In this document: positions 422 through 60,668 of the stretch, one piece after another
How the letters are laid out: each line of letters starts with the position of its first letter
Position numbering within the stretch: the first letter of the stretch is position 1
From: a virus
Lineage: Duplodnaviria; Caudoviricetes
Direction: 5' to 3' (one strand)
DNA: 64,000 nucleotides
Virus record (IMG/VR): IMGVR_UViG_3300049794_000047
Notes under the pieces: model-generated
The model's database searches: none
What the model was told of the DNA's origin: nothing
What the model saw: only the letters and a program-made list of their open reading frames with translations
Translations under genes and position numbers: made by a program

Positions 422-488
422 ACAAAATACGGGCCAAGAAAAGCGGGTGGTAAGACTGCAATATCCTTCCGTAGGTAGCAGGCTACTC
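422..488 (-). promoter_or_regulatory. Degenerate sigma54 promoter module
   Basis: Minus strand: GAGT-N8-ACCT, 37-nt gap containing CTTAC, GG-N10-GT, ATG (407) 14 nt later. Confidence 0.55.
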
Positions 489-601
489 GTGTCGGAACAC
501 GGAGCCGTGACGTCACACGCCACAACGCCGGCTCCGCGTTCCCCGTGGAGTGACTGGTGGTGCGGGGGTTATCGAGCTTGCAAGCTTCGCCTCGTGGCGC
601 C

Positions 602-1141
602 TCACCAATGTCCCTCGATTTGCGGGCCAAGGGCGGGCGCGGTTAGCGAGCAATCGGAGGCGTGCAAGCCATCGCCGAATGTCTTCCGCGCACAGCACTC
701 GACGACCGGATGGCTCCGCTTTTGCCATGTCCCACCAGAGAAGACGCGGCATCGACACCCGGTGTAACCCGGCCGGTAGCAACCCTCGTCAGTCGCAATG
801 ACACGTGACGGCTTGCCTGTTACACCAAAGGTCATCCCCTCAGTACGAATGCCAACTGTCTCTACCCACGCAGAGAAGCAGCCGGGCACCTGCTTCTCCA
901 CGAAGCACCACTCCTCCGGCGGATTCCAAGGCTCTCCGCGCGTGAGCCCCTTGCGAGTCACGAAGTCTCCTTGCGGAACACCAAGTCCGCGGCCACGTGA
1001 GCGTACTTCGAAACGTAGTCGCTGTTCATCGGGCAAGAGCGAATCCGAGAATTGTCGCCATGGCATCCGACGCGCGCGCTCCGCAAGCTTTGACCTCAGT
1101 TCGTCGCCGGTCAGCTTCGTCTTGGCTTTCTTTTTCGTCAT
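602..1141 (-). CDS. Hypothetical protein
   Basis: GGAGG SD before the ATG and a TATGAT -10 box upstream; no family recognised. Confidence 0.4.
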   Translation of the reverse strand: MTKKKAKTKLTGDELRSKLAERARRMPWRQFSDSLLPDEQRLRFEVRSRGRGLGVPQGDFVTRKGLTRGEPWNPPEEWCFVEKQVPGCFSAWVETVGIRTEGMTFGVTGKPSRVIATDEGCYRPGYTGCRCRVFSGGTWQKRSHPVVECCARKTFGDGLHASDCSLTAPALGPQIEGHW

Positions 1142-1176
1142 CAGGCTTGCCTCCGCCTGAGCGTATCATAGAGCGT

Positions 1177-1210
1177 ACGAAACTGAGGCAACGACTTGAT
1201 TTCGTTACCT
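1177..1210. promoter_or_regulatory. Inverted repeat ACGAAA-N17-TTTCGT (operator-like, family of 3)
   Basis: Related sites at 18335-18372 and 31811-31845. Confidence 0.5.
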
Positions 1211-1214
1211 TGCT

Positions 1215-1511
1215 TTACTCGACGCCCGTCTCCTCGTCCACGAAGTCGTCCGGCGGGTGGCCGCAGTGGGGGCACACCCGCGGCGAGAGCCACTGGCCGG
1301 CGAGCAACTCGTCCATGGTCACGCCCGCGAGCCGCGCCACCCGCAGCGCGAGCGCTGGCGTCACCGCACGCTTCCCGGTCGCCACCTTCTGGATCGAGTC
1401 CCACTCGTACCGGAGGGCCTTCGCCAGCGGACCCCAGGCACCGACGCGCAGCCGCAGGAAGCGAAGCGCCGTGCGCACGGCCTTCTGCTCCTTGGTGGTC
1501 AGGTCGTTCAC
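1215..1511 (-). CDS. XRE-like HTH regulator with C-terminal CPHCG knuckle
   Basis: LAKALRYEWDSIQKVATGKRAVTPALALRVARLAGVTMDELL is an XRE pattern; GTG overlaps the upstream TGA. Confidence 0.7.
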   Translation of the reverse strand: MNDLTTKEQKAVRTALRFLRLRVGAWGPLAKALRYEWDSIQKVATGKRAVTPALALRVARLAGVTMDELLAGQWLSPRVCPHCGHPPDDFVDEETGVE

Positions 1512-2969: not shown

Positions 2970-2975
2970 TAACGC

Positions 2976-3004
2976 TTGACGAATCGTTAAACGATTGCTA
3001 GGTT
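2976..3004 (+). promoter_or_regulatory. Leaderless sigma70 promoter with palindromic operator
   Basis: TTGACG-AATCGTTAAACGATTGC-TAGGTT (17-nt spacer), ATG at 3012. Confidence 0.8.
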
Positions 3005-3011
3005 GAGGGAC

Positions 3012-3407
3012 ATGACGATCCACTGCCCCGACCCGCAGTCCAATCCGCCCGACCTCATCGTCCGGTCCGGCCGCGAGAGCCTACCGCTGGAGGATCGTAT
3101 CGCGCTGATGGAGGCTAACTGCGTCCAACTCGAGGCCGACGCCGGACGCAACCCGAACTGGCGCGGCGCTGCGTGCGGCATCTTGTTCTCCGAGTGGGAT
3201 CGCCAAGACCACACCGATCACGGCTCGAAGGCCCACGCGTTCAACAGCATGCTCGGGCGCCTCCGTGGCCTGACCCAGACCTACCGCAAGGAGATCGGCA
3301 TCCGCGAGGGCTGGCTGTCGCGTTACGAGTGCGAGATCCTGGCGTGGCGCCGCGGTGGTTTCTTCGAGTGGCGTCAGATCAGGCACGAGGCCGACCAGCG
3401 CCCATGA
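3012..3407 (+). CDS. Hypothetical protein
   Basis: Follows the promoter; ATGA overlap with the next gene; its 5' part is duplicated at 9437. Confidence 0.65.
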   Translation: MTIHCPDPQSNPPDLIVRSGRESLPLEDRIALMEANCVQLEADAGRNPNWRGAACGILFSEWDRQDHTDHGSKAHAFNSMLGRLRGLTQTYRKEIGIREGWLSRYECEILAWRRGGFFEWRQIRHEADQRP

Positions 3408-4856: not shown

Positions 4857-5669
4857 CCACCAACCACGACCCTGGAGACGAGGACCGCTCGGTCGTCACC
4901 TACTGCTCGAACTGCGGCGACCCGTTCGACATGCCACCGGCCGACGATCCGACATTCGCTGCGACGTTCCGCCGCTGGAGACCCTGTCCGAACCCCTCGC
5001 CGGGCCGCCCGTTGGTCGACTGCGGCGTGGGCGGTCACATGTACGAGGAGAGGGTGCCGAGATGCAGTTGAAGGAAGGAACGAAGACATGAGCGACGAGA
5101 ACAATAGGGGACCATTCGTGCTGGCGCTGACACTCGAATGTCAGGCAACAGAGAAGCAGCGCAAGCGAAACTTCGCGCTCTACCAGCGGCTCAAGGACGG
5201 CGACCCGACGGCGCGCGGCAATGGCGTTGGGCTCTCTGCGTTCTCGTACGACGTTCCGATCGAACGTCTGAACATCGGGCCCGATGGTAAGTCGTTTTCG
5301 TTCAGGCTCAGCGGGCGGCGGTCAGTGCCGGGCCTGACATCCGACCGTCCGCGCATCGACGATGATCGGCTGCTGGCCCGAGGTGCAGAAGATCCTCGAC
5401 TCCAGGACGCCATCCGACTGCACGCTGCGCTCCGGCCTCTGCCAGGTGCCGTCGTAGTCCGGATCGCCGATCGGCGTTGGCCAGCACTCGAAGTGGCCCG
5501 AGCGGCGGATCCCGGTGCGCAGGTCGTACCCTACAGGACAGCTCGCGGTCACCGGCGGATCGCGAAACTGAGGGCGAGGAGTAGGAGGCCGACGAGCCAG
5601 TAGAGCATGCCGCCGAGCGTTGCTGCGATGACGCGAGAGGTCGAAATGCCGAGCGTTGACGTTTCCGTG

Positions 5670-5698
5670 TTGACAAACAAGCAGGCTGGTACTACTCT
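5670..5698 (+). promoter_or_regulatory. Leaderless sigma70 promoter
   Basis: TTGACA-N17-TACTCT, ATG at 5705. Confidence 0.7.
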
Positions 5699-5704
5699 GT
5701 TCTC

Positions 5705-7435: not shown

Positions 7436-7574
7436 CCAATTCCTGTTCCACAAGATCTCGGAGGCGCGCATAGCGCGCCTTTGACTTGCACAGCGACAAG
7501 TCTGCACCCGTTTCCACACTGTCGCGGAGCCGACAGGAAGCCGTGGTGCGCAAGATACGGGTAACGGAGTACCC
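7436..7574 (-). promoter_or_regulatory. Degenerate sigma54 promoter module
   Basis: Minus strand: GGGT-N8-ACCCGTATC, a second half-matching site 65 nt away, GG-N10-GG. Confidence 0.45.
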
Positions 7575-7725
7575 GGGGAGCAGCCCACGCGTTGCCTGGG
7601 TTCAAGTTGCAGGTATGGCTCACGAAGCTTCCTTCAGCGTGGATCGCCTCGTCCGTCCCTTTGGGGGGCAGTTCGGTCTCGCGGACGGATGCACTGCTCT
7701 TGAGGCTTGTTTGGCCTGCCAGTGT

Positions 7726-7757
7726 TTTTGTACAAAACCGTCGCCACATGGTACAAT
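7726..7757 (+). promoter_or_regulatory. TA promoter/operator
   Basis: Palindrome TTTTGTACAAAA and extended -10 TGGTACAAT; ATG at 7763. Confidence 0.6.
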
Positions 7758-7762
7758 GAAAC

Positions 7763-8991: not shown

Positions 8992-9195
8992 TCAAGCAGG
9001 TTGTCGCTTGGCTCCATGAAGTCGTTGGTCCGAGCAACGACACCGGCTTGGTTCCGACGCCTCGACTTCGAGACCGTACCGGCCGTTGCGCGCGGCAGCG
9101 GCGAGCCACCTAACGCGGCCGGTATTGAGAAGCGCCTCCACGAGGTTACCCTGGTCACCTGTCGTCACCACCACGAAAACTCGGCTGCTGTCCAC
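8992..9195 (-). CDS. Hypothetical protein after a sigma54 module
   Basis: GTG lies 14 nt downstream of the -12 GC of the module at 9210-9343. Confidence 0.4.
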   Translation of the reverse strand: MDSSRVFVVVTTGDQGNLVEALLNTGRVRWLAAAARNGRYGLEVEASEPSRCRCSDQRLHGAKRQPA

Positions 9196-9209
9196 GTCTT
9201 GAAAGTTGA

Positions 9210-9343
9210 GCATCTCGCGTGCCGGGGCTGGTCCTGCGGGGCAAGCTGTTGAAAGTCGTGATCCGGGCAGGTACTTACCGGGACTGCGTTTCACAGGTCC
9301 CAGATCGCACCGTCGTGGCGGAGATACGGGTGGTGAATTGCCC
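9210..9343 (-). promoter_or_regulatory. Sigma54 promoter module
   Basis: Minus strand: GGGC-N8-ACCCGTATCTC, second site 63 nt away, GGCACGCGAGATGC. Confidence 0.75.
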
Positions 9344-9400
9344 AGGCAACGAAAAACAGGGACGTCTCGGCGATAGACGAACCCTCTGCCTCGGGGACGC

Positions 9401-9429
9401 TTGACGAATCGTTTAACGATCGCTAGGTT
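9401..9429 (+). promoter_or_regulatory. Leaderless sigma70 promoter/operator copy 2
   Basis: TTGACG-AATCGTTTAACGATCGC-TAGGTT. Confidence 0.8.
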
Positions 9430-9436
9430 GAGGGAC

Positions 9437-9547
9437 ATGGCGATCCACTATCCCGACCTGCAGTCTAATCCGCCCGACCTCATCGTCCGGTCCGGCCGCG
9501 AGAGCCTACCGCTGGAGGTGTTTTTGCGGGGCCGGGAGCGGGGATAG
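9437..9547 (+). pseudogene. Truncated duplicate of the 5' end of gene 3012
   Basis: About 80 nt nearly identical to 3012-3092, then diverges to a TAG. Confidence 0.7.
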
Positions 9548-9567
9548 CGAAGCGCTTAACAAAGCCC

Positions 9568-9596
9568 TTGACGTTTCGTTAAACGATTGCTAGGTT
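9568..9596 (+). promoter_or_regulatory. Leaderless sigma70 promoter/operator copy 3
   Basis: TTGACG-TTTCGTTAAACGATTGC-TAGGTT, ATG at 9604. Confidence 0.8.
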
Positions 9597-9603
9597 GATG
9601 GGT

Positions 9604-11445
9604 ATGACGATGACTCGGATCGAAGCGGAAGAACGCGCCGCTCTGCTCTGGTCGAGCGGTGACGCGATCGGTCAAGTCCGATGGCGACGCTACCGGACTC
9701 CGCGCTTCTGGGTCGGGGTGTGCTTCTCCGATGGACGCAAACCGCAGACCAAGGGATCCAGCAACGTCGATTGGGAATCGGCGTTCGCGATCGCCACCGG
9801 AGCGCTGCAATGAGCTTCGTGTCTCACCTTGACGACGAGACGTGTCAGCACGTCGCTGACGGGACCGGACGCTGCGATCGGCCGGCGCTGTGGCAGGTGT
9901 TCGTGAGCAATGGCTCCCGCTCGTACTTCGCCTGCGACATTCATCTGACGAAGATTTCGCAAGCCATGCACGACGACAACGCGCGGCGTGTGACCGGCGG
10001 ATGCATGAACCTCAAGCGACTGAAGGACAGATATTCATGACCGACTGGATCAGAAACCCGCAACTCGGGTACGCGAGACGCATCGTGACCATGCTGGACG
10101 ACAAGGCGTGGGAGGTCGACTACCTGGTCAGCAAAGACGAGTTGCTGACCAAGCACTCCGTCCCGCGGGTCTCGCGCTCCACCCGCGCATGGGCGAATGC
10201 GCATCGTTGGCGCCTCACTGCCCGGGTGACGCGCGATGCTCTCGGCAGCGGTCACCCAGACAAGTATACGTACCTGATGCGCACCGACGACAGCGAGGGG
10301 TACTCCACCATGGCCGCAGCGCAGGCTGCAGCGGAGTGGACCGCCGTACACGGGTTCCACCACGTCCCAGCGAGGGGGTGGACGCCGAACGGAGAGGGTA
10401 TGTACGCCGCGCAGCGCGAGAGCCTCGGGCTTCCGGTCAAGGACCGCGTGAGGGACCTGCCATGAAAATCGACATCTGGGTTGCGAAGGTTCGGCTCGTT
10501 CGCGATGCCGCTGGGCCGCTCGCCCACAAGCCGAGCTGCAGCTACGCCGTGCTGGCCACGAGCGGTGTCCGAGCCGCGACGGTCATCTGCGATCACCTGA
10601 CATCGATCTGGACGACCGCCGGCGTCGTGTTCGAGGTCACCGAGCTGCGGTGCCGAGGCGACATCCTGCAGATCGACTCGTACGATAACGTCAAGAAGCC
10701 GCACGAGGCGTCGGCGATCGCGACGCTCAACCTCGATCGGCCGGTGGTGTCATGAGCAAACCCGCGGTCAATCTCTCATGGCTCGCCTCGCGTTCCGGTC
10801 CGGTTACCGACCAGCAGCTCAAGCAAATCCAGGAATGGCTCGATGCCGACTGGGAATCGCACGACGTCGAACGTGACGCGGTCCGGCTGATCGGTCGGCT
10901 GGTCGCTACTCTTGACGAGGAGCGCAAGCCGGAGCGCGAGCGCGATGCACGTTACGATGATGCGGCTGCTCGGAGGCCCAAGCCGTGAAACACAGACCTC
11001 TCACGCGCCGTCAGCACCAGATGCTCGGGGACGCGTACGACCACATGATATCCAACGGCGGGAAGACCGACTGGTCTGCCTTGATGGCACCGTGTCCTTG
11101 CATCGGTGATCTCCGCGTCCTCGGCGGCCTGGCGTTGCGTGGGCTGATGACCGACGGCGATCACGGTAACGAACCGCCCGCGATCACGGTGTGGTTGCGC
11201 TGGATCCGGATAACGCCGGCCGGCGTGGTCGAGTGGGAGCGGATCTTCGCCAAGCGCCAGTCGGAAGTAACTACGCCATGACGCCAATCGTCGCTTACCT
11301 CGTCATGGTCGTCTGGGGCATCGTGCTCCTGATCGCGGTCCAGCACACTAACGACACATGGAGTGACCTCTGGCGCGTGCTTCGTCAGCCGTTGCCCTGG
11401 CATGGTGTTCCGCGCATGATCGCCCGATGGAGATCTGCTCGATGA
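9604..11445 (+). other. Seven translationally coupled small hypothetical genes (9604-9813, 9810-10040, 10037-10465, 10462-10755, 10752-10988, 10985-11281, 11278-11445)
   Basis: Each stop overlaps the next start (ATGA/GTGA). Confidence 0.7.
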
Positions 11446-11962: not shown

Positions 11963-12392
11963 TCGCCGCTCCGCCACCCGCCGACCACGACCCCGGCCCC
12001 GGCGACGAGGACCGCTCCGGTGGGACTGTGCCCGCTAAGGGGCTGGACTTTATTAACTTGGTCATTTGAACGATTTCCCGACGAAGATCCACCAGAAATG
12101 ACCAGGTTATTTCGTTCCAGCCCCTAAGCGTTTCTTCATGGTCGACGACGATGGCCACATCCAATACAGCTTGGTCGCCCGCGATGTCGAGCACGTCAAG
12201 GAGTTGTTCCGCGCCGCGGGAACGCTGTTCGGCCCGTACGAGGTCGGTGTTGACGCCGCGACTACGCTCGAGTGGTCGGAGCTGACTCACCAAGAAGCGG
12301 CGCTCAAGACGCGCTGTCATACCGAGGATGACCGCGGAGTTATCGCGCCAGCCGATGCGAATATCGGGGACTGGTTTTGTAGCGAATGGTGA
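11959..12392 (+). pseudogene. Hypothetical gene interrupted by MITE copy 4
   Basis: The empty site reads in frame: ..GTVPAK-RFFMVDDDG. Confidence 0.7.
12039..12124 (-). mobile_element. 86-bp MITE copy 4 (type A, 1 substitution)
   Basis: TIRs plus TAA duplication. Confidence 0.92.
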
Positions 12393-12715: not shown

Positions 12716-13082
12716 CCACGATGAGAATCCTGCTCCGCTACTGGTGGCGCCTCCGCGCGAGGGGGCACGCGAACCTCTATCACCCGGCCGATGTCACGCC
12801 GACCGTCGACGGGTTCTTGGTTGAGTGCTCGTGCGGTGGGCATGGTCAGGTCCAGAGCAACGGCGACCGGACTTCCACGGTGACCGATACGACCTGTCCG
12901 CTGTGGGCTTGGCGATGGCGATGCCTCCTGGTTTCGATGCCGGCCGCGCGGACGATCGCGAGGCTAAGGGGCTGGAACGAAATAACCTGGTCATTTCTGG
13001 TGGATCTTCGTCGGGGAATCGTTCAAATGACCAAGTTAATAAAGTCCAGCCCCTAACCAGATCGAAAGGACCGACGAGATGA
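12712..13082 (+). pseudogene. Hypothetical gene with its C-terminus replaced by MITE copy 5
   Basis: The empty site gives ..TIARLTRSKGPTR* and restores the ATGA overlap at 13079. Confidence 0.65.
12968..13053 (+). mobile_element. 86-bp MITE copy 5 (type A)
   Basis: TIRs plus TAA duplication. Confidence 0.92.
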
Positions 13083-23483: not shown

Positions 23484-23613
23484 GGGTGTTCGGCTACCCG
23501 TGTCTCGAGCACAACGCAAAGGCTCGTTCTGCAGTCATCCAGAGACGGGTATAGATCTACCCAGAGCTGCATGACAACCATTTGCGCCGATGCACCTACG
23601 GCACGTTAACTGC
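23484..23613 (+). promoter_or_regulatory. Sigma54 promoter module
   Basis: GGGT-N8-ACCC at 23484 and 23547, 37-nt gap, GGCACGTTAACTGC, ATG at 23628. Confidence 0.8.
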
Positions 23614-24082
23614 TCTAGTCATCCAACATGTCGATCCAGAGCCGACACCTTTACGCAGCCTACAAGCGAATCGAAGCCTTCGTTGGCAAGGCGGGTGCGC
23701 TAGTGCTCGCTACCGTCTGGACGACGTGCGAGGTGAACCACGGCCCGGAAGTGAATGGCATCGGACCGCTCGGGATTCAAGAGTAGGTCCAAGGAGCGTT
23801 GCCCATGCCGAGCAAGAGGAAAGCGCGCGTAAGGTTGAGCATGGTGCCCGCTGCAGCCGGTCAGTTGCAAGATGTTAAGGACATGCGCGCAGCCGCTCTC
23901 AAGACGTCAATCGATCTCCGCATGAGAGCGGACGAAATCGAGGATGCTGCTCGTACGATCGCGAGCATCGCCTACGATGAGGGTCGCAGCGATGAGATCG
24001 ATGGACCGGCGTGGGATCGTGCAGAGAAGATCCTGCGCGCAGCAGGGATCCCGGTGCCGAACTCCGGCCTACTGGTGTGGTC

Positions 24083-43970: not shown

Positions 43971-44771
43971 ATGACAGCTTACGACCCCACCGCGATTGAA
44001 CGGCTGATCGCCGAGGCACGCGAGGACGTCGCACGAATGCTCGGTGGCAGGTGGTCCACGGTCGGCAGCGGCTCGATCCTGGAGATCGAATCCTCGGAAT
44101 TGCACCCCGATGGTGACAACATCGGCGTCGCCGAGGATCTGCGCTCCGAGGACGCGCTTGGCATCGCCCGCACCCGCAACAACCTTGCGGCCATGGCCGA
44201 CCAACTCGAGGCCGCGCACGCGGAGGTCACGCATCTGAAACGACGCGATCTGTTTCGTCGCGACTGCGAGTGGTTCATCGCCACGGATCCGCAACCGTGG
44301 CGCTTCGGTCAGCTGGACTTTCCAAGGTGCGCGAATCGCGCGAATTGCGTCGGGGAGACGCTGCCGCGGCGCTCCCAGTACATCCTGTGTCGTGAACATG
44401 CTGAGCAATGGGACGGCGACCTCGTGGCGATGTCGGGTGAGCCCGTGGCAATTCCGAAGCAGGTGCACGACGCTGCCGCTGCTGCCGCTGCCGCTGCCGC
44501 TGCCGCTGCTGCCGCTGCCGCTGCCGCCGCTGCTGCCGCTGCCGCCGCCGCTACCGCCGCCGCCGCTCGCGACGCAACGGAGCTCCGCATCGCGGCTAAA
44601 CTCGGGCTATCGCCAACCGCGACACAGGGCGAGATCGCGGAGGCTGTGGAAGCGGTGGTGGCGGAACGGAATGCCGCGCAAACGTACATCTCCGAGCTAC
44701 AACACGCCGCCAAGACGGTGATTGACAACTCGCTCGGTTGTGTGGCCACACGCGTGTCAAAGGGCGGGTGA
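43971..44771 (+). CDS. Ead/Ea22-like protein with a poly-Ala tract
   Basis: LIAEAREDV..W..DALGIARTRNNL..MADQLE. Confidence 0.5.
   Translation: MTAYDPTAIERLIAEAREDVARMLGGRWSTVGSGSILEIESSELHPDGDNIGVAEDLRSEDALGIARTRNNLAAMADQLEAAHAEVTHLKRRDLFRRDCEWFIATDPQPWRFGQLDFPRCANRANCVGETLPRRSQYILCREHAEQWDGDLVAMSGEPVAIPKQVHDAAAAAAAAAAAAAAAAAAAAAAAAAAATAAAARDATELRIAAKLGLSPTATQGEIAEAVEAVVAERNAAQTYISELQHAAKTVIDNSLGCVATRVSKGG
44472..44567 (+). repeat. GCT/GCC trinucleotide tract (31 Ala + 1 Thr)
   Basis: Directly visible. Confidence 0.95.
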
Positions 44772-44853
44772 CCGGCTACCCGTATCGGGTGTCGACCTAC
44801 CCAGGAACGAAAAATGTCCCCTTGCACCACCGTGCCGGTGGCGTGCAAGATGC
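44766..44853 (+). promoter_or_regulatory. Sigma54 promoter module (short form)
   Basis: GGGT-N8-ACCC at 44766 and 44787, 37-nt gap, GGCGTGCAAGATGC, ATG at 44868. Confidence 0.8.
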
Positions 44854-45156
44854 ATTCATCAGCCGTGATGAAGATCAACGTGCACGTCCGATGGGAAGTC
44901 TGGATTGGGGAGTGGAAATACCTCATGGAGAGCCTCATGGAGAGCCCTCGCGACGCAAATAGCCTCAATGAGCTCCCGCAACTCCGCTGGCGCTTCAATG
45001 CCTGCTTTGACGAGCGCAGCAAGGCAGAGTCCGAGAGCCACTGGTATCGAAAGCAGGGCTACTCAAATGTCGACATTCGCTGTCGGACCACGCAGTACCA
45101 GGCGCGACGTCACGTCACGTCACCACGGGCTAGCATGACCTATCAAGGCACGTCCT

Positions 45157-45288
45157 GGGTACCCTGGCACCCGTGTCTCAAGAGAAACACACGGACGTAC
45201 GATCCGTGGACGGCCAGAGACGGGTGGTGGCTTACCCAGGGACGAAAGACGGCCCCTTACATCACTGAGCCTGTGGCGTGAAAGATGC
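45157..45288 (+). promoter_or_regulatory. Sigma54 promoter module
   Basis: Sites at 45157 and 45222, CTTAC, 37-nt gap, GGCGTGAAAGATGC, ATG at 45303. Confidence 0.8.
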
Positions 45289-45499
45289 ACTGTTTGTCAG
45301 ACATGCTAAGGATCAACTGGACCGGGGGAGGCGCTCTCTTGCGCCTAACCTCTGGGGACCATTGCGACTGGGCCTATTGCGGTGGTGGTCCGAGCTTCCG
45401 GAACGTCAAGCGAACGCACTTCGTTGCGGCGATCGAGTCACTGCTTGGGTGGGATCATCCGGCCGCGCAGGAGGCCCGTGACTTCTGTAAGCGTGCCAA

Positions 45500-48222: not shown

Positions 48223-48290
48223 GGGTGCCGACCTACCCAGGAAAGTCCCCAGAGCACTTACGCGAAGGGCACAATCGGCACACACATTGC
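48223..48290 (+). promoter_or_regulatory. Sigma54 promoter module (proximal site only)
   Basis: GGGT-N8-ACCC, CTTAC, 38-nt gap, GGCACACACATTGC, ATG at 48305. Confidence 0.8.
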
Positions 48291-49535
48291 TTTTACCTCG
48301 GAGCATGAAGGAACCTGTCATGATGAATATTCCGCCGCGCATCGGCCAGCGCGTCGGCTTCACGCGCCACGATCATCCAAATGTACCCCCAGGCCGCGGC
48401 GGTATGATTGACCAGGTTGGATCGGACAATCAGTTCGTGGTCATGATCGACGGTGGTGGATTCTTTGGCTGGACCGCATTCGACAGCTGGGAGTTCACTG
48501 GTGAGCCTGATGTGGTTCTCAATCCCGAATACGTCGTCATGCGGACGCAGGCGCTGTGCGACGACAGTACGATTAAGCCGATCGGGCGGAAGCCAGGATG
48601 AGCCCTGCAGAAGACCGCCTGCTCAGCTTCGTGGCCACGCGCCTCGAAAGCATGCTGCGCCGGCCTGCCATCTGGGGCTCGCTATTCTCCGTGGAAGAAC
48701 GGATCCTGCAACTCTTGGAGTTGCGGCGAGTGCTCCTGGCCCCTTCATTTTCAGCGGACGATACGCACCAGCTCCTGCGGTCGTACTCGCGGTTCATCTC
48801 CGAAACCCTGGAGGATGCCACCGTGGAACCCCTCGCCACGCAACTCGAACAGCGAGGGCGGGCAGCCGAATTTCCCGCGCTCATGAAGAAGTTCATCGAG
48901 CGCGAGCGCGCAGAGTTCCTTGCCGACGCGGTGACCTTGCCGACGCGGTGACCAAAAACCAACCAATGCCCCAGGAACAAAGAAAAGGTTCGTGAGCGCC
49001 GCAGGTCTCGAAGCCACTCATAGCGGGCAAGCTGCCGTCACTGTTGTCGAACGCCCCGTGCACTGTTCAAAATTCCAACCGTAGCCCCAAGGAGAAACAG
49101 CCTTTATGAGTATAGACTGGAGCGCCTACGCCGTCATCGGCTGCGAGGTCACCGGAAAGCTGATCCAGAAGATCCGCAGCCCTGGTTGCAAGCATAACAA
49201 ACCCAGCGGCTCGCCCTTCTGTGCACAGTGCGGCCTGCCCTCGAGCGTGATCGAGGAAATTCCAATCGCGGGATACGATCGGGACGCAGCCAAGATCGGC
49301 ACTTTCTCCGTCGTTGGCACGTCTGACGATCGCCGTCAGTTCGTAGGCTTCATGGTTGGTGCTGGTGATTTTGACCAGGCCCGCATGCGTCCTCTCCCCG
49401 ACTTCACCGAGATCAAGACCGCCCTGTGCGCTGTCCTTGAACCGCTGGGGCTCTGGACCGAAGAGTCCTTCGGCCTGTGGTCTATCCTCTGCTGCTTATG
49501 TTAAGGACACCCAGTGATCATCGACGCTCAAGCCC

Positions 49536-49667
49536 GAGTGATCTGATACCCCGTGTCCCGAGCACCACGTTCCCAGCTTGACCTGCGCCCGTGCGGAGAC
49601 GGGTGACACCCTACCCAGGAGCGACCCTCAAGCACTTACATGAATGCGCGCCCGGCACACGAGTTGC
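49536..49667 (+). promoter_or_regulatory. Sigma54 promoter module
   Basis: Sites at 49536 (GAGT) and 49601, CTTAC, 37-nt gap, GGCACACGAGTTGC, ATG at 49682. Confidence 0.8.
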
Positions 49668-49681
49668 TTTAGCCTAGGAAC

Positions 49682-50287
49682 ATGAAGGAACCTGTTGTGC
49701 TGACGACCTGTACCGAGACCTCGCTCGTGCTCGTCATGTTCAAGTTCTCGTCCGATGACGACCAGTTCCGCGCGCGCCTGTTCGACGCAATCCTCAGCGA
49801 CAGGTGCCCGGACTTCGAGTGCTCTCTGGGCAGCCCGAGCGGGACTGGGCACAGCTGCACCGCCCTGTGGCGACCGGAGCACGCGGACGCGGTCCGCGCC
49901 TGGGCGCGATCCATCGGCATCCACGTCACCAGCGACGCCCCCAGCGACAGCACCCCCGGCGTTCCCCATTTCCAGGGAGGACCCCGCAACGTCTCTGCCG
50001 GCGCTACCCGTATCCAGGGAGGACCCCGCGACGTCACCGCCGACGCTACCCGTATCCAGGGAAGACCCCGCGACGTCTCCGTCGGCGCTCCCCGTATCCA
50101 GGGAGGACCCAGCAATGTCACCGCCGACGCTACCCGTATCCAGGGAGAACCCCACGGTCGTGAGGGGGTCGCAACCCACATCAAACTGCCCGACATCGGC
50201 GACATCGCACCCGGAGGCGTGGTCGCCCCGTGTATCGCCGACGTCGAGCGCATGCTCGTCGACCGGCGCGCGAAGGGGACACTGTAG
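49682..50287 (+). CDS. Hypothetical protein with 14-aa tandem repeats
   Basis: IQGGPRDVTADATR-like units. Confidence 0.55.
   Translation: MKEPVVLTTCTETSLVLVMFKFSSDDDQFRARLFDAILSDRCPDFECSLGSPSGTGHSCTALWRPEHADAVRAWARSIGIHVTSDAPSDSTPGVPHFQGGPRNVSAGATRIQGGPRDVTADATRIQGRPRDVSVGAPRIQGGPSNVTADATRIQGEPHGREGVATHIKLPDIGDIAPGGVVAPCIADVERMLVDRRAKGTL
49958..50155 (+). repeat. 42-bp tandem repeat, about 4.5 copies
   Basis: CCAGGGA recurs at 49972, 50014, 50056, 50098 and 50140. Confidence 0.9.
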
Positions 50288-50289
50288 CC

Positions 50290-51075
50290 ATGATCACCGC
50301 ATTCAAAGTATTTACCCACGACCTTCGCCTCCCCGTTCAGGGCGGCGGGGCGCCTATCTGGTCGGGCACACTACCCTATGTGCTGCCCCGTGACGAGGCT
50401 GGGTGGCTTGCATGCGGAACGCCCCAGGACGCGCTATGCTTCTCGGGACTCTGGCCCAACGGTCGGCCTTCGCGACTGTTCGTCGTCGAGACCAGCGCGC
50501 CGATCATCAAGCACGACGACAGGTTGCGCGCAGATACGTGGACGCTCATTGATGAAATGGTGGTCGACGACACGGTCCGCGCGCTGTCCCGGAAATGGCT
50601 CGGCGTACACGCGGACGTCATGGCACGCGAGCAATTGGCGTGGCACGCTGCGCTACTGCGGCCGACCCGCAACGTCACGGCCGTCGAGCAGGGCCTCAGA
50701 CAGGCACTCGAGACACGCGGGCTGCCCTGGCAGTTGAAGCTCTTCAATACCACCAGGGACGCTTGGAACGCCAGGACCGGCTGGAACACCTGGGCCGCCT
50801 GGAACGCCTCGGCCGCCAAAATTACCTGGGCCACCAGGACCACCAGGGCCACCAGGGACGCCTGGGGCGCCTGGGACGCCTGGCACGTCACGGCCGCCTG
50901 GGACGCCTCGGCCGCCTGGGACGCACTGATCCACTACTACGCGGCGACGATGAGCTGGGTACCAGGACCCACGGACCTGTTCACCGTTGGGCTTCGTGAG
51001 GCCTACACCGCGGGCCTCGCCGTCGCGTTGCCCACGAGACCGAATGAGCTCGGTTGGGCGATGGAGGGCGTGTAG
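50290..51075 (+). CDS. Phage hypothetical protein with AWDA 9-bp repeats
   Basis: Low-complexity Ala/Trp region at about 50750-50925. Confidence 0.6.
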   Translation: MITAFKVFTHDLRLPVQGGGAPIWSGTLPYVLPRDEAGWLACGTPQDALCFSGLWPNGRPSRLFVVETSAPIIKHDDRLRADTWTLIDEMVVDDTVRALSRKWLGVHADVMAREQLAWHAALLRPTRNVTAVEQGLRQALETRGLPWQLKLFNTTRDAWNARTGWNTWAAWNASAAKITWATRTTRATRDAWGAWDAWHVTAAWDASAAWDALIHYYAATMSWVPGPTDLFTVGLREAYTAGLAVALPTRPNELGWAMEGV

Positions 51076-52693: not shown

Positions 52694-53808
52694 ATGCGCA
52701 AAACGACACACGACAAGATCCCGATCCATCCAGCCGAGGATGTTCCTACGACAGTTCTCAAGATGCTCGCCAACATGGCCATCAAGCGTGCGACAGAGCT
52801 GGGTGAGGGCAGGAAGCACATGGCCGAGTTTCATCCGGACGGCTGGAAAATTGCAATCGAGACGCCCCGCGGGGCCATCGGCCTCTGGTCCTGCTGGCTC
52901 GGGAACCAATTTCACCTGGGATATCCCGGCCCGATGATGACGTCTGTGTCCTCAGCTCCGGTCAGCGCCCTCATCAAGGAGCATCTTGGGGTCGAGCTTG
53001 CAAAGCCTGTACTTCAGGTCAATGCAACGGCCGTCCAGACCGACTACGCGGGAGAGTACAAAGACACAGACAAACCGCTTGAGGTCAACGCCTTGGGGCA
53101 GGTCATTGCCTACCAGACGCAGGGCCCAAGGTTGTGGGCGCCCTACTGCGGCCCACGTGTTTCCAGTGGTGCGCAGGAGCCGGGAAGGGTCTGGATCGAG
53201 CACGCGTGCTCCTCCTCAACCGCCACAGATTTCCGTTTCATCACGCCAGACGCCCCGGAGGCGCTCTCTACCATCTGGTACGGGCATGATAGCGGCTGGA
53301 CCATCTACACGTACCCCCACACGTTTGCCAACCGCTACGCACCGGATGGTCCCACAGCAACCCCTGCGTGCGTTCAGGTGTACCGAGACAGGTTCCTGGC
53401 ACTCGCGTGCTCCCTCGCCCAGGCCCTTGGGGGAGCACGGGCGGTCAATATGGACTACGGCTTTGTCATGACCCCGGCGCAACTCAAAACCCTTGGGTAT
53501 GAGAACATCCATTGGATCAAGGGGTCTCCAGACAGTTAGGGGCTGGAACGAAATAACCTGGTCATTTCGGGTGAATCCTCGTCGGAAAATCGGTCAAATG
53601 GCCAAGTTAATAAAGTCCAGCCCCTTACCGGGGCTGGGGAAACGAGGTCGTTCTTGCGAGCCGGAGCCTCGCTGAAAGTCGGACTGAGCATCTCCTGCTG
53701 CGAAGCGTCAACCAAATGGTGCCTTGGTCCACGATCCGTCGAATCCCCATAGAAGCGGCGCACGGAGCACTCACGGCTCGAACACTCCTTGACTTCCTGA
53801 CCTTTTAA
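52694..53808 (+). pseudogene. Hypothetical gene truncated by MITE copy 10
   Basis: The empty site extends the frame 60 codons, to TAA 53806-53808. Confidence 0.7.
53539..53624 (+). mobile_element. MITE copy 10 (divergent type D)
   Basis: TIRs plus TTA duplication. Confidence 0.92.
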
Positions 53809-54809: not shown

Positions 54810-55132
54810 GTGAAAGGCACCCTGATCCGACTCGGCGCGCAACTCGCTGAAGAGAACAACGCCGCGGCGGACCTGTGGTCGTGGCTGCCCTCTCACCAAG
54901 TCGCTGAGAAGCACCACGGTGTCTACACTTCAGAACACGTCCCATGCAACCGAGACGTGCTGCAGGAGGCCGTGATGTACCTGATCTATCTGAAACACCC
55001 AGAAGCGTTCCGCGAACTGCTAAGGGGCTGGAACGAAATAACCTGGTCATTTCGGGTGGATCTTCGTCCGAAAATCGGGCAAATGACCAAGTTAATAAAG
55101 TCCAGCCCCTAAGTCCAGAGAAACAGAAGTGA
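54810..55132 (+). pseudogene. Hypothetical gene with its C-terminus replaced by MITE copy 11
   Basis: The empty site gives ..FRELLSPEKQK* and restores the GTGA overlap at 55129. Confidence 0.7.
55024..55109 (+). mobile_element. MITE copy 11 (type B)
   Basis: TIRs plus TAA duplication. Confidence 0.92.
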
Positions 55133-56690: not shown

Positions 56691-56766
56691 GCCCCCGTGG
56701 TGGATACAATCGCTTCCACACGCGTGCGAAGCCAGGTACGATCCGTCCATACGCACCGAAGCCGAA

Positions 56767-57167
56767 GCGTTGCCCGTACCGCCCGGCGTTGGCCGTATTG
56801 CCCGTATCGCCCGGCGTTGCCGTACCGCCCGGCGTTGCCGTGCCGCCCAGCGTTGCCCGTATCGCCCGGCGTTGGCCGTATTGCCCGTATCGCCCGGCGT
56901 TGCCGTACCGCCCGGCGTTGCCGTGCCGCCCAGCGTTGCCCGTATCGCCCGGCGTTGGCCGTATTGCCCGTATCGCCCGTATCGCCCGGCGTTCCCCGTA
57001 TCGCCCAGCGTTGGCCGTATTGCCCGTATCGCCCGCATCGCCCGGCGTTGGCCGTATTGCCCGTATCGCCCGTATCGCCCGGCGTTGGCCGTATTGGCCG
57101 TATTGCCCGTATCGCCCGTATCGCCCGGCATTCCCCGTCTCGCCCGGCGTTGCCGTACCGCCCGGCG
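56767..57167. repeat. Hierarchical satellite of 8-10-nt units (GCCCGTATC, GCCCGGCGTT, GGCCGTATT) with an 83-bp higher-order period
   Basis: The GTTGGCCG block recurs at 56788, 56871 and 56954. Confidence 0.9.
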
Positions 57168-57227
57168 GGGGCTCCCCCAATCAAGTGGATGAGTTGCAAA
57201 CCGAACTTCAAGGCCGAGGAACAAAAC

Positions 57228-58535
57228 ATGATCCCACCACAGCCCCTCATCCTGGTCTCGACCTCGACGCCCGCAACCTACCGCTTCGAGACCACCGGCG
57301 ACGGGTTTCGATCGTGGGCACTATGCACGGTCAACGACACCACCGGCGAACTGTGTATCACGAGTGACTGGGGCAACTGGTCGTATCGCTGGAGCGCTGA
57401 CCCCGGGCACCTCGGTTTCCCCACGCTAGCCGCGTTCATTGGCACGCGCGGCGGTGTCGACTACCTCGCACGCAAGCTGCAGCGCGGGGGTCGCGACGGC
57501 CACCGCTGGTCAGCCGAGAAGACCGTCGTCACACTGCGCCGCCGGCTCTGTACACGCCGGCTCGAGGAGGGCCGTACCCAACTCGAGAACCGCCTCGAGC
57601 CCGATGACATGCCGGATGGCAAGCCCCTGCAACACTTGATCGAGCCGGTGGGCAATTACACGGCGGACGGCTTACCAATCTACAGCGGCCGTATGCCCGC
57701 CGAGTACCGCAACGGTCGGCCCTGGAAGCTCAACGGTGAGCCGTACGAGCCCCTGCCATTCCTGACGCGCGACGCGGCCCGGCGGCTCTGGGACGAGATC
57801 GGCGAGCTAACCGCCTTCGCGGGCAGCTCAGACCTGTTCTACGTGAACGCCTGGGAGATCGAAGGCTTCTCGGAATACGTCACCGACAACATCTCGGAGT
57901 ACGTCGAGACCGAGCAGACGCCGGAGGATAAGGCGTTGCGCGACCTCGTGCTGCCAGCACTGATCGAGGCGTGCCGGGCGCGGATCACTGCCGGATCGAC
58001 TCCGGCGACCGCCGCTTCGACGGCTCGAGACGATCGGCAGGCCCAGATCTTCGCCTGGCCCCAGGCCGCGTTTACCGTGGAGCAAGCGACCAGCCTGCCG
58101 CAGCGCGGGCTCCGGCTACTCGAGGAATCGATCGAAGCATTCCAGGCAGTGGGTGGCGATCCGGCTCAGGCTCACAAGCTTGTCGACTACGTGTTCTCGA
58201 GGCCGGTTGGCGTCCTGCATCAGGGGCTCGGTGGCGTCAACAGCGGTTTGCTCGCGCTGTCCGCCGCGGCCGGGCTGTCGGCCGAGGCTGAGGAGCAGCG
58301 CGAGGTGACGCGCGTCCTAGCGAAGCCGATCGAAGAGTTCACGCGGCGGAACGAGGCAAAGAACGCAGCAGGGTTCCTGGCGCAGGAGCCGCGCCCTACG
58401 TGCGCGAACATGTCGCCACCGTGGTTCGCCGGCCGGTGGTTGGACTGGCACCGTGGCCACGGCTGCGACAAGGACGACGGCAAGCCGCGCACGCCGGAGG
58501 GTGAGGCCGAGATCGCGGCTGGAGGTTCCCGGTGA
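57228..58535 (+). CDS. Phage protein fused to a MazG-like NTP pyrophosphohydrolase domain
   Basis: C-terminal QRGLRLLEESIEAFQA..LVDYVFSRPVG..Q.LGGV; GAGGA SD. Confidence 0.6.
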   Translation: MIPPQPLILVSTSTPATYRFETTGDGFRSWALCTVNDTTGELCITSDWGNWSYRWSADPGHLGFPTLAAFIGTRGGVDYLARKLQRGGRDGHRWSAEKTVVTLRRRLCTRRLEEGRTQLENRLEPDDMPDGKPLQHLIEPVGNYTADGLPIYSGRMPAEYRNGRPWKLNGEPYEPLPFLTRDAARRLWDEIGELTAFAGSSDLFYVNAWEIEGFSEYVTDNISEYVETEQTPEDKALRDLVLPALIEACRARITAGSTPATAASTARDDRQAQIFAWPQAAFTVEQATSLPQRGLRLLEESIEAFQAVGGDPAQAHKLVDYVFSRPVGVLHQGLGGVNSGLLALSAAAGLSAEAEEQREVTRVLAKPIEEFTRRNEAKNAAGFLAQEPRPTCANMSPPWFAGRWLDWHRGHGCDKDDGKPRTPEGEAEIAAGGSR

Positions 58536-58618
58536 AGGCTGACGAGCGCCGAGCTGCTGGCTGGGAGCAGCCTCGAGCTCGGTGAGAGGTCGTGGAGCCA
58601 GAGCTCGGGAGCAGCCCT

Positions 58619-58739
58619 GGGTGTACAAATACCCGTGTATCAAGTACCTCGGGCCGTGTCCCACAACGACCGGCTGCAACGTTACCCAGAGCTCGCATCC
58701 ATGTACTTACAAACGCCCAGCTACAGGCACGCAAACTGC
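58619..58739 (+). promoter_or_regulatory. Sigma54 promoter module
   Basis: Sites at 58619 and 58672 (GGCT), CTTAC, 38-nt gap, GGCACGCAAACTGC, ATG at 58758. Confidence 0.8.
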
Positions 58740-60042
58740 TCTACGGAGAGGTTGTCCATGCCTAAGACACACCGCAGCCTAAAGACCGTACGAGTCCTTG
58801 TGCGATCGACAACCTCGCGCAAACCGTTTCGCCCCGGGACCTACAGCGCACTACTGGGCACGTCGCGCGGACACGACACCTGGGCGCGAGCGGCGGGAGC
58901 CGCGTTGAAGCTCGCCGACCGGCGCGGCTACCTCGTGACGAACCGAGAGCTCGTCGAACGCAGGATCGCCTCGGAGGCTTCATGATTCGGAGCTGGCACA
59001 CACCCCGCGAGGCAATCCAGTACCGCGGGTACTGCACGGGTCCCGTGGACGGTGGCCCGGCGCCGGGTGAAGTCGGCCCTGACTACAAGGCCGCTTGTTG
59101 CACGTGCCATCGGCGGGTCCGGGTCACCACCCGTGGACGCTACGCGCACCACAAGGCGTCCGTCGAGTCACAACGCTCTGCGGCCACGGCTCTCCTACCA
59201 AAGCTCACCAAGATCCAGATCGACGGCCTTCGCAGATACGCCAAGAGCGGATCATGGCACCGCGTGCACCATGTCCACGGTCACACGATTCACAGTCTAG
59301 AGGCCCGCAGCCTGATCGCCCGCCGCGGTCGCCACGTTACGCCGCTCGGTCACGCGGTGCTCAGGGCTGACTTCGCACGGGTCCCTGACATCTTTGATGA
59401 TTTGTTTCCCAGTAACCGAAAGACGGTCAAGTAATGCAGCTCGTCTGGTACCAGCGCGCGGACGGCTTGTGGAACGCGGCATGTGCGTGCAACGCAACGG
59501 TCGTCGGTATACCGTTGGAGGGCCGCGCCACAGCTGAAACGGCTCACTTCGATCTCACGCGCATGGAGCGCGTCTTTCGTGCCGGACACCCAAGGCGCTT
59601 CGCGGGGGACCAACTTCCCGCCTGCGGCCCGAAGCTCCCCGAGCACAACCCAAACGTCTCCGGCCCATTCGTGTCCCCCTGATGAAGGTAGCAATATGCC
59701 CCGAGGTAGTCGCAATGTGGATCATTTTCTCATGAAAGCGCCTCACCCGCGTACGCCCCCGCCGCTGATCAAAGACGCCGCGACCGCCGGGCTTGTCACG
59801 TGCGGTTACTGCAACCGGGGCGACGGGGCACTCGGAACGGCAGTTGCTGTTGCCGTATCCGCCGTGCGCGTGGGACGCAGCGATGCTTGCGAAGCAGACC
59901 CAGGCCAACGGCACTTCCTATAGAATGCGCTGTGGAGGCGCACGAGCCTGCCGGTAAGCTTCATAGGCGCGGCAGGCCGACCACGGTTCGGTAACGGACA
60001 ACAGTCTCTTTGGCAGCAGCAGCGGTGAGCGTAGCCGGCCAA

Positions 60043-60146
60043 GCGGATGTAGCTCACTGCTCCTACGGGTGGTTCTATGGTAAAGCAGCGGTCAGCCAAG
60101 GTCGATGCACCGCTGAAGCCTGGTTCAACTCCAGGGATTGCCCCCG
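60043..60146 (+). ncRNA. tRNA-like element with expanded D and anticodon loops
   Basis: TAGCTCA..GGTAAAGCA, stem GCGGT/ACCGC, perfect T-arm CCTGG-TTCAACT-CCAGG; poor acceptor stem, no clear anticodon. Confidence 0.5.
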
Positions 60147-60536
60147 AATGGATCTCCTCCGACAACCACCAAGGATGCGCGCGTGACTGACAATCCTCGC
60201 TGGATCTCATGGGCTCAGCACGGCGACGCCGCGCACGATCCCGACTGCCGTCCCGTCGCTTGGCCGCCCCCACCGGAGGTGCTGGCCTTCTGGGCGACGA
60301 GCTTCGGCGGTGACGAGGGCACGGACGCCTACTGCACAATCGTCGTGCTCGTTCGCGCCCCAAACGAAAACGCCGCGGCAGCCCTCATCAAGAAAGCGTG
60401 GACACCGGGCATCGGCGAGTGGCGCTTCAACCGCGAGTACGACGGCAGTCGAGCCCCTGGTGACCGCTTCCCGCCGCCGGAGTGGTCGCTCAAAATGGGC
60501 CGTTGGCCCTGGAAGGTGTCGAAGACATGACCGACC

Positions 60537-60668
60537 GGGTATTCCATTACCCGTGTCTCGAGCACCACGAGAGCCGCACGTGCGTCCACAAGCAGAGACT
60601 GGGTAAGTATCTACCCACGCTGAGTCTGCAACCACTTACGTGCCACAGCAAACAGGCACGCGAGCTGC
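60537..60668 (+). promoter_or_regulatory. Sigma54 promoter module
   Basis: Sites at 60537 and 60601, CTTAC, 38-nt gap, GGCACGCGAGCTGC, ATG at 60682. Confidence 0.8.

Follow-up and report, generated by a model that had tools for sequence, protein, structure and literature searches.

Why does one dyad, GGGT-N8-ACCC, recur ahead of so many genes of a phage-like element? We asked this of the window (the whole 64,000-nt stretch that was analysed), which holds 15 such sites, whereas 0.75 ± 0.85 are expected from dinucleotide shuffles and none of 100 shuffles reached 15. When a perfect palindrome 34–41 nt upstream of a GGYRYR-N5-TGC core was counted as one composite, seven were found in the window compared with a mean of 0.003 in 300 shuffles. 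The frequency is thus not at chance level, the outcome on which a first-pass annotation of this DNA had said that its reading would fall.

The modules and their core

Nine modules, all within intergenic gaps according to our gene calls (9/9), share a common order: distal palindrome, proximal palindrome, ACTTRC box, GGCACG-N4-CTGCTC core and start codon. The GG of the core lies at 23600, 27088, 44840, 45275, 48277, 49654, 58726 and 60655 on the plus strand and at 9223 on the minus strand. The modules and two weaker regions are as follows (fractions are palindrome positions matched).

23484–23630, plus strand: module 1; distal palindrome 23484–23499, then GTGTCTCGAGCAC; proximal 23547–23562, preceded by GAGAC; box variant ATTTGC 23580–23585; core GG-N10-GC 23600–23613; ATG 23628, 14 nt after the GC, starting a 52-aa ORF.
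26980–27101, plus strand: module 2; distal 26980–26995; proximal 27035–27050; ACTTAC 27068–27073; core 27088–27101; no start codon at the canonical distance; radical-SAM gene downstream (about 27231–27980).
44766–44870, plus strand: module 3; distal 44766–44781 and proximal 44787–44802, just 21 nt apart; box CCTTGC; core variant GGCGTG-N4-ATGC 44840–44853; ATG 44868, 14 nt after the GC.
45157–45305, plus strand: module 4, paralogue of module 3; distal 45157–45172 and proximal 45222–45237, 65 nt apart; box CCTTAC; core GGCGTG-N4-ATGC 45275–45288; ATG 45303, 14 nt after the GC.
48223–48307, plus strand: module 5; proximal 48223–48238, no distal site; ACTTAC 48256–48261; core 48277–48290; ATG 48305, 14 nt after the GC.
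49536–49684, plus strand: module 6, paralogue of module 5; distal 49536–49551 (7/8); proximal 49601–49616; ACTTAC; core 49654–49667; ATG 49682, 14 nt after the GC.
58619–58760, plus strand: module 7; distal 58619–58634; proximal 58672–58687 (7/8); ACTTAC 58705–58710; core 58726–58739; ATG 58758, 18 nt after the GC.
60537–60684, plus strand: module 8; distal 60537–60552; proximal 60601–60616; ACTTAC 60634–60639; core 60655–60668; ATG 60682, 13 nt after the GC.
9193–9343, minus strand: module 9; distal 9328–9343 (7/8); degenerate proximal 9265–9280 (6/8), at 41 nt; excellent core 9210–9223; GTG 9195, 14 nt after the GC.
7436–7574, minus strand: remnant; perfect distal-type site 7559–7574 with GTATCTTGCGCACCACG tail; half a proximal site; no credible −24/−12 core.
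400–470, minus strand: weak look-alike, not counted as a module; CTTACC box and TGGCCCG-N-TTTGTA (GG-N10-GT) before an ATG; no palindromes.

The first-pass annotation had described nine clear modules and two degenerate ones. All nine cores and the order of the elements stood, although the minus-strand module at 9223 has degenerate palindromes; of the two degenerate modules, the one near 7436 kept its distal site but not a core, and the one near 422 lost its palindromes and ends in GT. Some modules are paralogous duplicates (48277 with 49654, and 44840 with 45275), so the nine do not amount to nine independent instances. The 229-aa product of module 8 has the identical ATG start called on an independent JGI contig.

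The GG and GC dinucleotides are 10 nt apart, as in RpoN promoters, in all nine window modules and in 59 of 59 non-redundant modules. Set against the RpoN form TGGCACG-N4-TTGCW, the core consensus reads GGCACGc.a.CTGCTc and carries much information at GGCAC and TGCT; the T 5′ of the GG is not conserved, and the base before TGC is usually C, unlike the first T of TTGC in classical sigma-54 promoters. Between the motifs, pairwise spacer identity is ∼30% (near-random), which bears out the earlier remark that only motifs and geometry are kept. This divergence bears on whether the modules are promoters at all, or instead derive from a mobile or recombination element of MITE, attC-like or REP-like type, as their dispersed, intergenic placement and inverted repeats might suggest. 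Such dispersed repeats would have whole-length likeness, a stable hairpin and a position independent of genes; here, in addition to the dissimilar spacers, repeat finding grouped a true 98-nt repeat but not the modules, the 4-bp stem is too weak for a hairpin, and module orientation always agrees with the downstream gene, at a position fixed relative to its start codon. We find a mobile-element origin hardly credible.

Geometry and start codons

In all eight plus-strand modules the proximal palindrome lies 37 or 38 nt from the GG, as the earlier description had it, although its extension of this rule to region 422 did not survive the lack of a palindrome there. Among the 59 non-redundant modules the gap is 37 nt in 32, 38 nt in 24 and 39 nt in 3. 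The distal and proximal palindromes of the plus-strand window modules are 63, 55, 21, 65, 65, 53 and 64 nt apart (48277 lacks a distal palindrome), in agreement with the proposed classes of 21, 53–55 and 63–65 nt, and in the 59 modules the distances cluster at 21, 43, 51–56, 62–66 and 73 nt. The two sites are helically phased (resultant vector 0.77 at a period of 10.5–11 bp), placing both dyads on the same face as in the upstream activating sequence of an enhancer-binding activator (bEBP). The CTTAC box had been placed about 15 nt before the −24 element; ACTTAC or a variant indeed ends 14 nt before the GG.

The proximal dyad is centred near −70 and the distal dyad at about −92 to −136. Both positions fall in the range of known bEBP sites, and the earlier statement that the activator binds unusually close to the promoter was overstated. 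The unusual feature is the invariant 37–39 nt spacing, not closeness.

A start codon follows the GC by exactly 14 nt in six window modules (one of them a GTG), so that the seven counted previously were slightly too many; the others have it at 13 nt (60655), at 18 nt (58726) or not at all (27088). In 34 of 42 non-redundant metagenome modules an ATG lies 13–16 nt after the GC, which leaves no room for a Shine-Dalgarno leader. If transcription starts 12 nt after the C of the GC, leaderless mRNAs (leader ≤5 nt) would follow, and the distance from core to start codon would fit leaders of 2–3 nt. This distance is consistent with the start 11–13 nt after the GC that is expected of sigma-54 promoters; among runs recorded as RNA, none was found to contain this DNA.

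Conservation and a candidate activator on related contigs

The strict search pattern fixed only GAGACGGGT-N8-ACCC-N37/38-GGCRYR-N5-TGC. With it, the same cassette was found on 46 soil-metagenome stretches, among them contigs of 128 to 461 kb, and features that the pattern does not constrain recur there: C before TGC, TC after it, the ACTTRC box, a distal site with a GTGTCTC tail and an ATG 13–16 nt after the GC. Five orthologous upstream regions vary everywhere except in both dyads, the box, the core and the ATG. The strict composite had 0 matches in 185,579 species genomes, and the strict cassette had no match in IMG/VR. In 401 Myxococcota genomes the composite was at control level (2 matches versus 1), and at 80 bacterial loci with homologous bEBPs (841 kb) the palindrome density equalled chance; thus no host regulon with this site is seen.

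A gene search of the window found neither a bEBP nor an RpoN gene, as had been stated at the outset, and the case for an activator of the element's own therefore rests on its relatives. Related contigs encode a sensor-less bEBP that combines an AAA+ domain (with GAFTGA or GAFSGA) and a Fis-type HTH. Two such proteins, P0004 (326 aa) from a contig of 128 kb and P0006 (323 aa) from one of 428 kb, match Sigma54_activat (PF00158; E 1e-60 to 5e-62), AAA_lid_14 (PF25601) and HTH_8 (PF02954), without an N-terminal domain. Both carry the motif ESELFGHERGAF(S/T)GA, and they have the Walker A sequence (GETGCGKE), the loop (ESELFGHERGAFTGA or GAFSGA) and the HTH that together define a bEBP. Their nearest named homologues are Kofleriaceae and Myxococcales proteins, sensor-containing and sensor-less (62–67% identity), and this Kofleriaceae-like character may be a clue to the host.

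Four phage-like contigs (L049, L053, L134 and L136) have a bEBP with at least 64% identity, and all four carry modules ≤10 kb from its gene. In L053 one module heads a co-directional gene run that contains the bEBP gene, and another module follows. No such modules occur in L052, a related phage-like contig whose bEBP is 57% identical. The co-occurrence in the four contigs, with half-site centres 12 bp apart that fit a Fis-type HTH dimer, would suit binding of the palindromes by the bEBP.

The palindromes could instead be operators of another phage regulator that gates sigma-54 promoters, with the bEBP bound elsewhere or acting from solution. The candidate would be a small Cro/CI-like HTH protein encoded at 1215–1511 of the window, or a repressor; in L053/L036 an HTH gene 94% identical to the window copy lies divergently beside the module of the bEBP operon, and a simple bEBP dimer leaves the asymmetric arms and the tail unexplained. 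We regard this as improbable, because not only the half-site spacing but also the phased dyads at about −70 and −92 to −136 follow the classical layout of an upstream activating sequence. Moreover, a sigma-54 promoter stays off unless an activator acts on it, which makes an operator superfluous.

Phage bEBPs and their bacterial homologues in Kofleriaceae have almost the same HTH_8 recognition helix; the DNA-binding domain alone thus does not explain a phage-specific site, and a host paralogue could read it. Together with the window's lack of a bEBP gene, this would suit a genome without its own activator whose sigma-54 promoters have palindromes bound by a host bEBP. Such a hijack is unlikely, as relatives encode a sensor-less bEBP beside the modules and no host regulon emerged from the Myxococcota genomes or the bacterial bEBP loci.

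Could the core be read by a phage-encoded factor or polymerase and resemble an RpoN promoter by convergence? Huge phages often bring their own transcription parts, and L053 has an RNAP alpha-CTD-like gene at a distance of 6 kb from its bEBP gene. Nevertheless, the GG-N10-GC core with GGCACG and TGCT agrees with the RpoN consensus wherever that is informative, a search of ∼330 kb of loci plus the window gave no match to an RpoN-like protein or another polymerase, and we know of no partner of a GAFTGA bEBP except sigma-54. We consider convergence very unlikely.

Proposed mechanism and known systems

With the cassette conserved in 46 stretches and a bEBP beside modules in relatives, a co-ordinated sigma-54 programme with an enhancer-binding activator, as originally suggested, is the best fit. 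We think it probable that a huge phage-like soil element uses each module as an enhancer-dependent sigma-54 promoter, through the steps proposed here; the element looks to start many operons from a fixed two-palindrome and sigma-54 cassette. The motifs, their geometry and conservation and the activator gene of relatives are what we observe, whereas RpoN dependence, the transcription start site, the identity of the binders and an activator in this genome are what we infer. Host RNA polymerase with sigma-54 would wait on GGCACG-N4-CTGCTC in the closed state. The phage lineage itself would supply a PspF-like bEBP, presumably always active because it has no sensor domain, and two dimers of it would bind both GGGT(A)-N6-(T)ACCC dyads. 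With these on one helix face and their asymmetric GTCTC arms pointing towards each other, the dimers would nucleate an ATPase ring at a set distance, with the centre of the proximal site near −70, and the ACTTRC box (∼−45 to −40) may be there for a bending protein or some other contact. The open complex would yield an mRNA with its AUG 1–5 nt from the 5′ end, so that ribosomes would read the first gene from an mRNA with no leader or almost none; in myxobacteria, sigma-A promoters have been proposed to give leaderless mRNAs (PMC12754779). The regulon would switch on according to when the activator is produced and would not wait for a signal. To a wider scenario we give an even chance: huge soil phages, probably on Myxococcota, may have captured a host bEBP, removed its sensor and rewired much of the genome onto host sigma-54 through a rigid, stereospecific enhancer–promoter cassette that yields leaderless mRNAs.

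Classical tandem-site sigma-54 promoters are served by NtrC at glnAp2, NifA at nifH and PspF with IHF at pspA. The modules resemble these in the GG-N10-GC core, in two dyads on one helical face at about −70 to −140, in a conserved element separating the enhancer from the core, the usual place of IHF, and in a predicted dependence on an AAA+ activator with GAFTGA. They differ in the invariant distance from proximal site to −24 (37–39 nt, 59 modules), in sites with inward-facing asymmetric GTCTC arms, in a start codon 13–16 nt after the GC, and in serving a phage-like element and not a cellular pathway. P0004 and P0006, like PspF-type bEBPs, consist only of the sigma-54 AAA+ domain, lid and C-terminal Fis-type HTH, and with this sensor-less, PspF-like architecture they are expected to be active as made; unlike those proteins, they come from phage-like contigs of 128 to 428 kb, and no PspA-like antagonist was identified for them.

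Among phage proteins, Htm (Gp204) of Mosigvirus AV110 is a structurally bEBP-like AAA+ protein proposed to act on the sigma-54 holoenzyme; it lacks GAFTGA and an HTH domain and binds ssDNA (bioRxiv 10.64898/2026.10.06.757011). P0004 and P0006, in contrast, have a GAFTGA-type motif and an HTH, with matching enhancer and promoter sites on the phage genome. The middle and late programmes of T4 depend on phage-encoded activators or sigma factors (PMC2988020) and would resemble the modules in that a phage product turns on a set of scattered promoters specific to the phage, but they use sigma-70-family factors or appropriators. Our literature search found no paper on a phage regulon or transcription programme built on sigma-54.

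What is new here is a predicted sensor-less activator encoded on related contigs beside the modules. Sigma-54 is regarded as a means by which cells keep signal-dependent genes under tight control. If the wider scenario is true, sigma-54 would here govern a virus-wide regulon for the first time, and its initiation would for the first time be paired systematically with leaderless translation. An activator that is encoded by the virus, lacks a sensor and has an enhancer code of its own would represent a new takeover strategy, in which promoters would show no activity at all before one phage protein is made and would be out of reach of host sigma-70 control. With its invariant geometry and missing leader, the cassette would be compact, portable and without basal activity, which could interest synthetic biology, and it would allow the handover of sigma-54 open complexes to ribosomes on leaderless mRNA to be probed directly. 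It is also a cheap sequence marker of this phage lineage in soil metagenomes.

Architecture of the modules in the window

The palindrome GGGT-N8-ACCC was observed 15 times in the window, compared with 0.75 expected. By anchoring on the sigma-54-like core GGYRYR-N5-TGC, we recovered nine places with an identical order of parts, in agreement with the nine ordered modules claimed in the first-pass annotation; all of them (9/9) are intergenic and oriented toward the next gene. The composite also held up against shuffled sequence, as seven copies with a perfect proximal palindrome were present in the window versus 0.003 in 300 dinucleotide shuffles.

Order of parts in a module
First: distal palindrome, followed by GT(G/A)TCTC
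Second: proximal palindrome, preceded by GAGAC
Third: ACTTAC or a variant, ending 14 nt before GG
Fourth: core, GGCACG-N4-CTGCTC

The two palindromes (dyads) of a module repeat a single asymmetric unit, CCTGGGT-N8-ACCCGT(GT)CTC, in inverted orientation, with their GTCTC arms facing each other. A start codon lies exactly 14 nt after the GC in six modules (seven had initially been counted), at 13 nt in one and at 18 nt in another, and is absent from the ninth. Two additional modules, annotated as degenerate, are weak: one is a GG-N10-GT without a palindrome, the other a distal site without a core. The activator site had also been called unusually close to the promoter. This was overstated; at about -70, the proximal site falls inside the range of known sites for bacterial enhancer-binding proteins (bEBPs), the activators of sigma-54.

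Two pairs of modules are paralogous (48276-48326 with 49653-49703, and 44787-44880 with 45222-45315). In both pairs the core, the leader and the first codons were duplicated together (MKEPV... and M(K/L)(I/R)IN...), a pattern suggesting that operon heads have been propagated as units of promoter plus N-terminus. At 27088, in the window as in the related locus L037, the core continues directly into CAAACGTT (window 27088-27130). Orthologous modules in L004 and L028 have ∼20 extra nt after the core, including the ATG, so that in the window this operon appears to have lost the start of its first small gene. Tandem arrays at 56766-57181 and 49940-50156 are rich in CCCGTATC, which corresponds to the distal site's right half together with its arm. 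One array has 9-nt sub-units and lies inside or upstream of a 612-aa ORF, the other has a 42-nt period and lies inside the gene driven by module 6 (core at 49654); the arrays may be repeats within coding sequence or may act as decoy half-sites for the activator.

Conservation and distribution of the modules

We searched with the strict pattern GAGACGGGT-N8-ACCC-N37/38-GGCRYR-N5-TGC. It was found neither in IMG/VR nor in 185,579 species (one genome each), and it matched 46 stretches on soil and sediment metagenome contigs, including contigs of 128, 202, 231, 333 and 461 kb. Features that the pattern does not fix recurred in these stretches: the C before TGC and the TC after it, the ACTTRC box, and the distal site with its tail. 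In 34 of the 42 non-redundant metagenome modules an ATG follows 13-16 nt after the GC. The geometry is equally constrained when 59 non-redundant modules are pooled: the gap from the proximal site to GG is 37 nt in 32 modules, 38 nt in 24 and 39 nt in three, and the site-to-site distances (21, 43, 51-56, 62-66 and 73 nt) correspond to whole helical turns, with a phase vector of 0.77 at a period of 10.5-11 bp.

Pairwise identity of the spacers and of the N8 centre is ∼30%, close to random. When the upstream regions of five orthologues of the gene at 60682 are compared, conservation is limited to both dyads, the box, the core and the ATG. A repeat finder clustered a genuine 98-nt repeat of the window and left the modules ungrouped. 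Together, these three observations rule out the alternative that the modules are copies of a mobile repeat. The first genes behind 49 modules matched no Pfam or PHROG family beyond two marginal single matches, and the regulon is therefore not labelled early or late.

Modules were absent beside the bEBP of L051, which lies in a bacterial context, from the phage-like contig L052 with a 57% identical bEBP, and from a Kofleriaceae contig (L135) encoding the bacterial bEBP P0011. None was found at 80 bacterial loci with 37-57% identical bEBPs, where six palindromes in 841 kb amount to chance density. In 401 Myxococcota genomes the composite occurred twice, versus once for the reversed control.

A candidate activator and its putative origin

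The first-pass annotation saw no activator or RpoN gene in the window, and we likewise found neither a GAFTGA protein there nor any match with NtrC, RpoN or the phage bEBP. A tblastn search with E. coli NtrC reached the extreme edge of locus L036, on a 128-kb contig, and this lead gave two bEBPs, P0004 (326 aa, on the 128-kb JGI contig) and P0006 (323 aa, on a 428-kb ENA contig). Both have a sigma-54 interaction AAA+ domain (E 1e-60 to 5e-62), an AAA lid and a Fis-type HTH, with GETGCGKE and ESELFGHERGAF(T/S)GA present and the N-terminal sensor domain absent. This architecture (AAA+, lid and HTH without a sensor) is PspF-like. Their genes are surrounded by dozens of tiny family-less ORFs.

Modules accompany such genes. 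On L053, in the 128-kb relative, small genes in one direction form a run with a module at its head (8226) and the bEBP as its last gene; a second module follows the bEBP gene at 11099; on L049, modules are located just downstream of the bEBP gene. P0008 (L134) and P0016 (L136) are sensor-less bEBPs, 64-66% identical, from two further phage-like contigs with modules. Synteny with the bEBP regions of L049, L053, L134 and L136 is too patchy to predict the position that the gene would have in the genome from which the window derives. L053 also encodes, 6 kb upstream of its bEBP, a 153-aa protein with an RNA polymerase alpha C-terminal domain (PF03118; L053:3338-3799), which may belong to the same transcription takeover. 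When GenBank phages were searched with P0006 (tblastn), 66 records matched, none above 60% identity; judged by organism names and annotated features, most of them appear to be contigs of bacteria or transduced fragments deposited as phage, and no close homolog was found among genuine cultured phages.

Kofleriaceae and other Myxococcales MAGs supply the nearest named homologs of the phage bEBP, with 62-67% identity across 97% of the length; many of these homologs carry FHA sensor domains. Among species genomes the best match was Corallococcus (52%), with other Myxococcota next. The alignment of P0008 and of P0010 with Kofleriaceae P0011 begins just before the AAA+ domain, suggesting that the phage bEBP is a captured host gene that lost its sensor. 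As phage and bacterial bEBPs have nearly the same recognition helix, their sequences do not reveal site specificity, and cross-talk with host bEBPs may occur. On the Kofleriaceae MAG contig DASSMO010000200.1, a GGCACG-N4-TTGCTC core (L135:776-805) lies ∼0.9 kb upstream of the P0011 gene, with an ATG 13 nt after the GC that opens a called 55-aa gene. From this single case, the near-leaderless sigma-54 layout may also exist in the presumed host lineage.

Individually, the parts of the module are textbook sigma-54 biology. The system departs from described sigma-54 systems in its presumably viral setting, in a sensor-less bEBP carried by the virus with a putative enhancer code of its own, in the invariant spacing, in the asymmetric arms facing inward, and in a leader that is predicted to be systematically lacking. 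Full-text searches found no phage sigma-54 regulon in the literature; the nearest described item, Htm, an AAA+ protein of Mosigvirus AV110 likened to bEBPs in a preprint, has neither GAFTGA nor HTH. What the present analysis contributes is the activator with its affinity to myxobacterial proteins, the controls for co-occurrence and for host genomes, and the geometry of the pooled modules.

Proposed mechanism and nature of the element

The most likely mechanism, which we regard as probable, combines host sigma-54, bEBP dimers on phased dyads and a near-leaderless transcript. The host sigma-54 holoenzyme would occupy the core, while two bEBP dimers on the phased dyads would seed the ATPase ring at a fixed distance; the ACTTRC box (∼-45 to -40) may be there for a bending protein or some other contact. 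Transcription would start ∼12 nt after the C of GC, placing the AUG at about +3 to +6, and the message would therefore be leaderless or nearly so. With no sensor on the activator, the timing of the regulon would depend on when the activator is made, and in the 128-kb relative positive feedback would operate as well.

Leaderless messages look like a general habit of the element. Sigma-70-like promoters in the left part of the window (sequences TTGACG-N17-TAGGTT, TTGACA-N17-TACTCT and TTGTAC-N18-TACAAT) abut start codons, ending 5-7 nt before them. They were read by eye and from a repeat-finder family, a strict sigma-70 scan giving two sites only. Leaderless mRNAs thus seem to arise in the left part too, though from another class of promoter. 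Leaderless sigma-A transcripts have been proposed in myxobacteria (PMC12754779).

Sigma-70-like promoters
2975-3014
∼5665-5704
∼7725-7762
9400-9439
9567-9606

The window has a G+C content of 62% and is crowded with ∼118 short, mostly plus-strand genes. Few are recognisable: two tyrosine integrases, an HTH_17 protein, a radical-SAM enzyme and an ABC/AAA fragment. The window contains no tRNA genes. The window and ten large ORFs from related loci showed no virion hallmark gene; they yielded only a primase-helicase and proteins that belong to phage families but have no known function. Indirect support for the element being a phage comes from the 128-461 kb relatives with dense unknown ORFs, the primase-helicase and strong PHROG matches. 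The DNA was present in seven DNA runs of soil and freshwater metagenomes and in no RNA run. An 18-kb megablast query found no match among GenBank phages.

The window has 12 copies of an imperfect 98-nt palindrome (TAAGGGGCTGGA...TCCAGCCCCTAA) in both orientations; they are 85-100% identical, and most of them sit where a gene ends. The palindrome appears to be either an element of the MITE or REP kind or a bidirectional terminator, and it is unrelated to the sigma-54 modules.

Copies of the 98-nt palindrome
1634-1731
2073-2170
2875-2972
12030-12127
12959-13056
30964-31061
32564-32661
32982-33079
33666-33763
53530-53627
55015-55112
61847-61944

A 9-nt periodic repeat at 50732-50934 encodes a collagen-like P-G-x tract within a 261-aa gene (50290-51075). 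A small Cro/CI-like HTH gene (1215-1511, minus strand) is 94% identical to L036:1986-2312; in this 128-kb relative it is divergent from the module of the bEBP operon. Over L036:1-2400, the bEBP end had no read cover in the likely source run, and reads of four soil runs covered the small HTH gene only. Because many different contigs cover the HTH gene in these runs, it is widespread and multi-variant.
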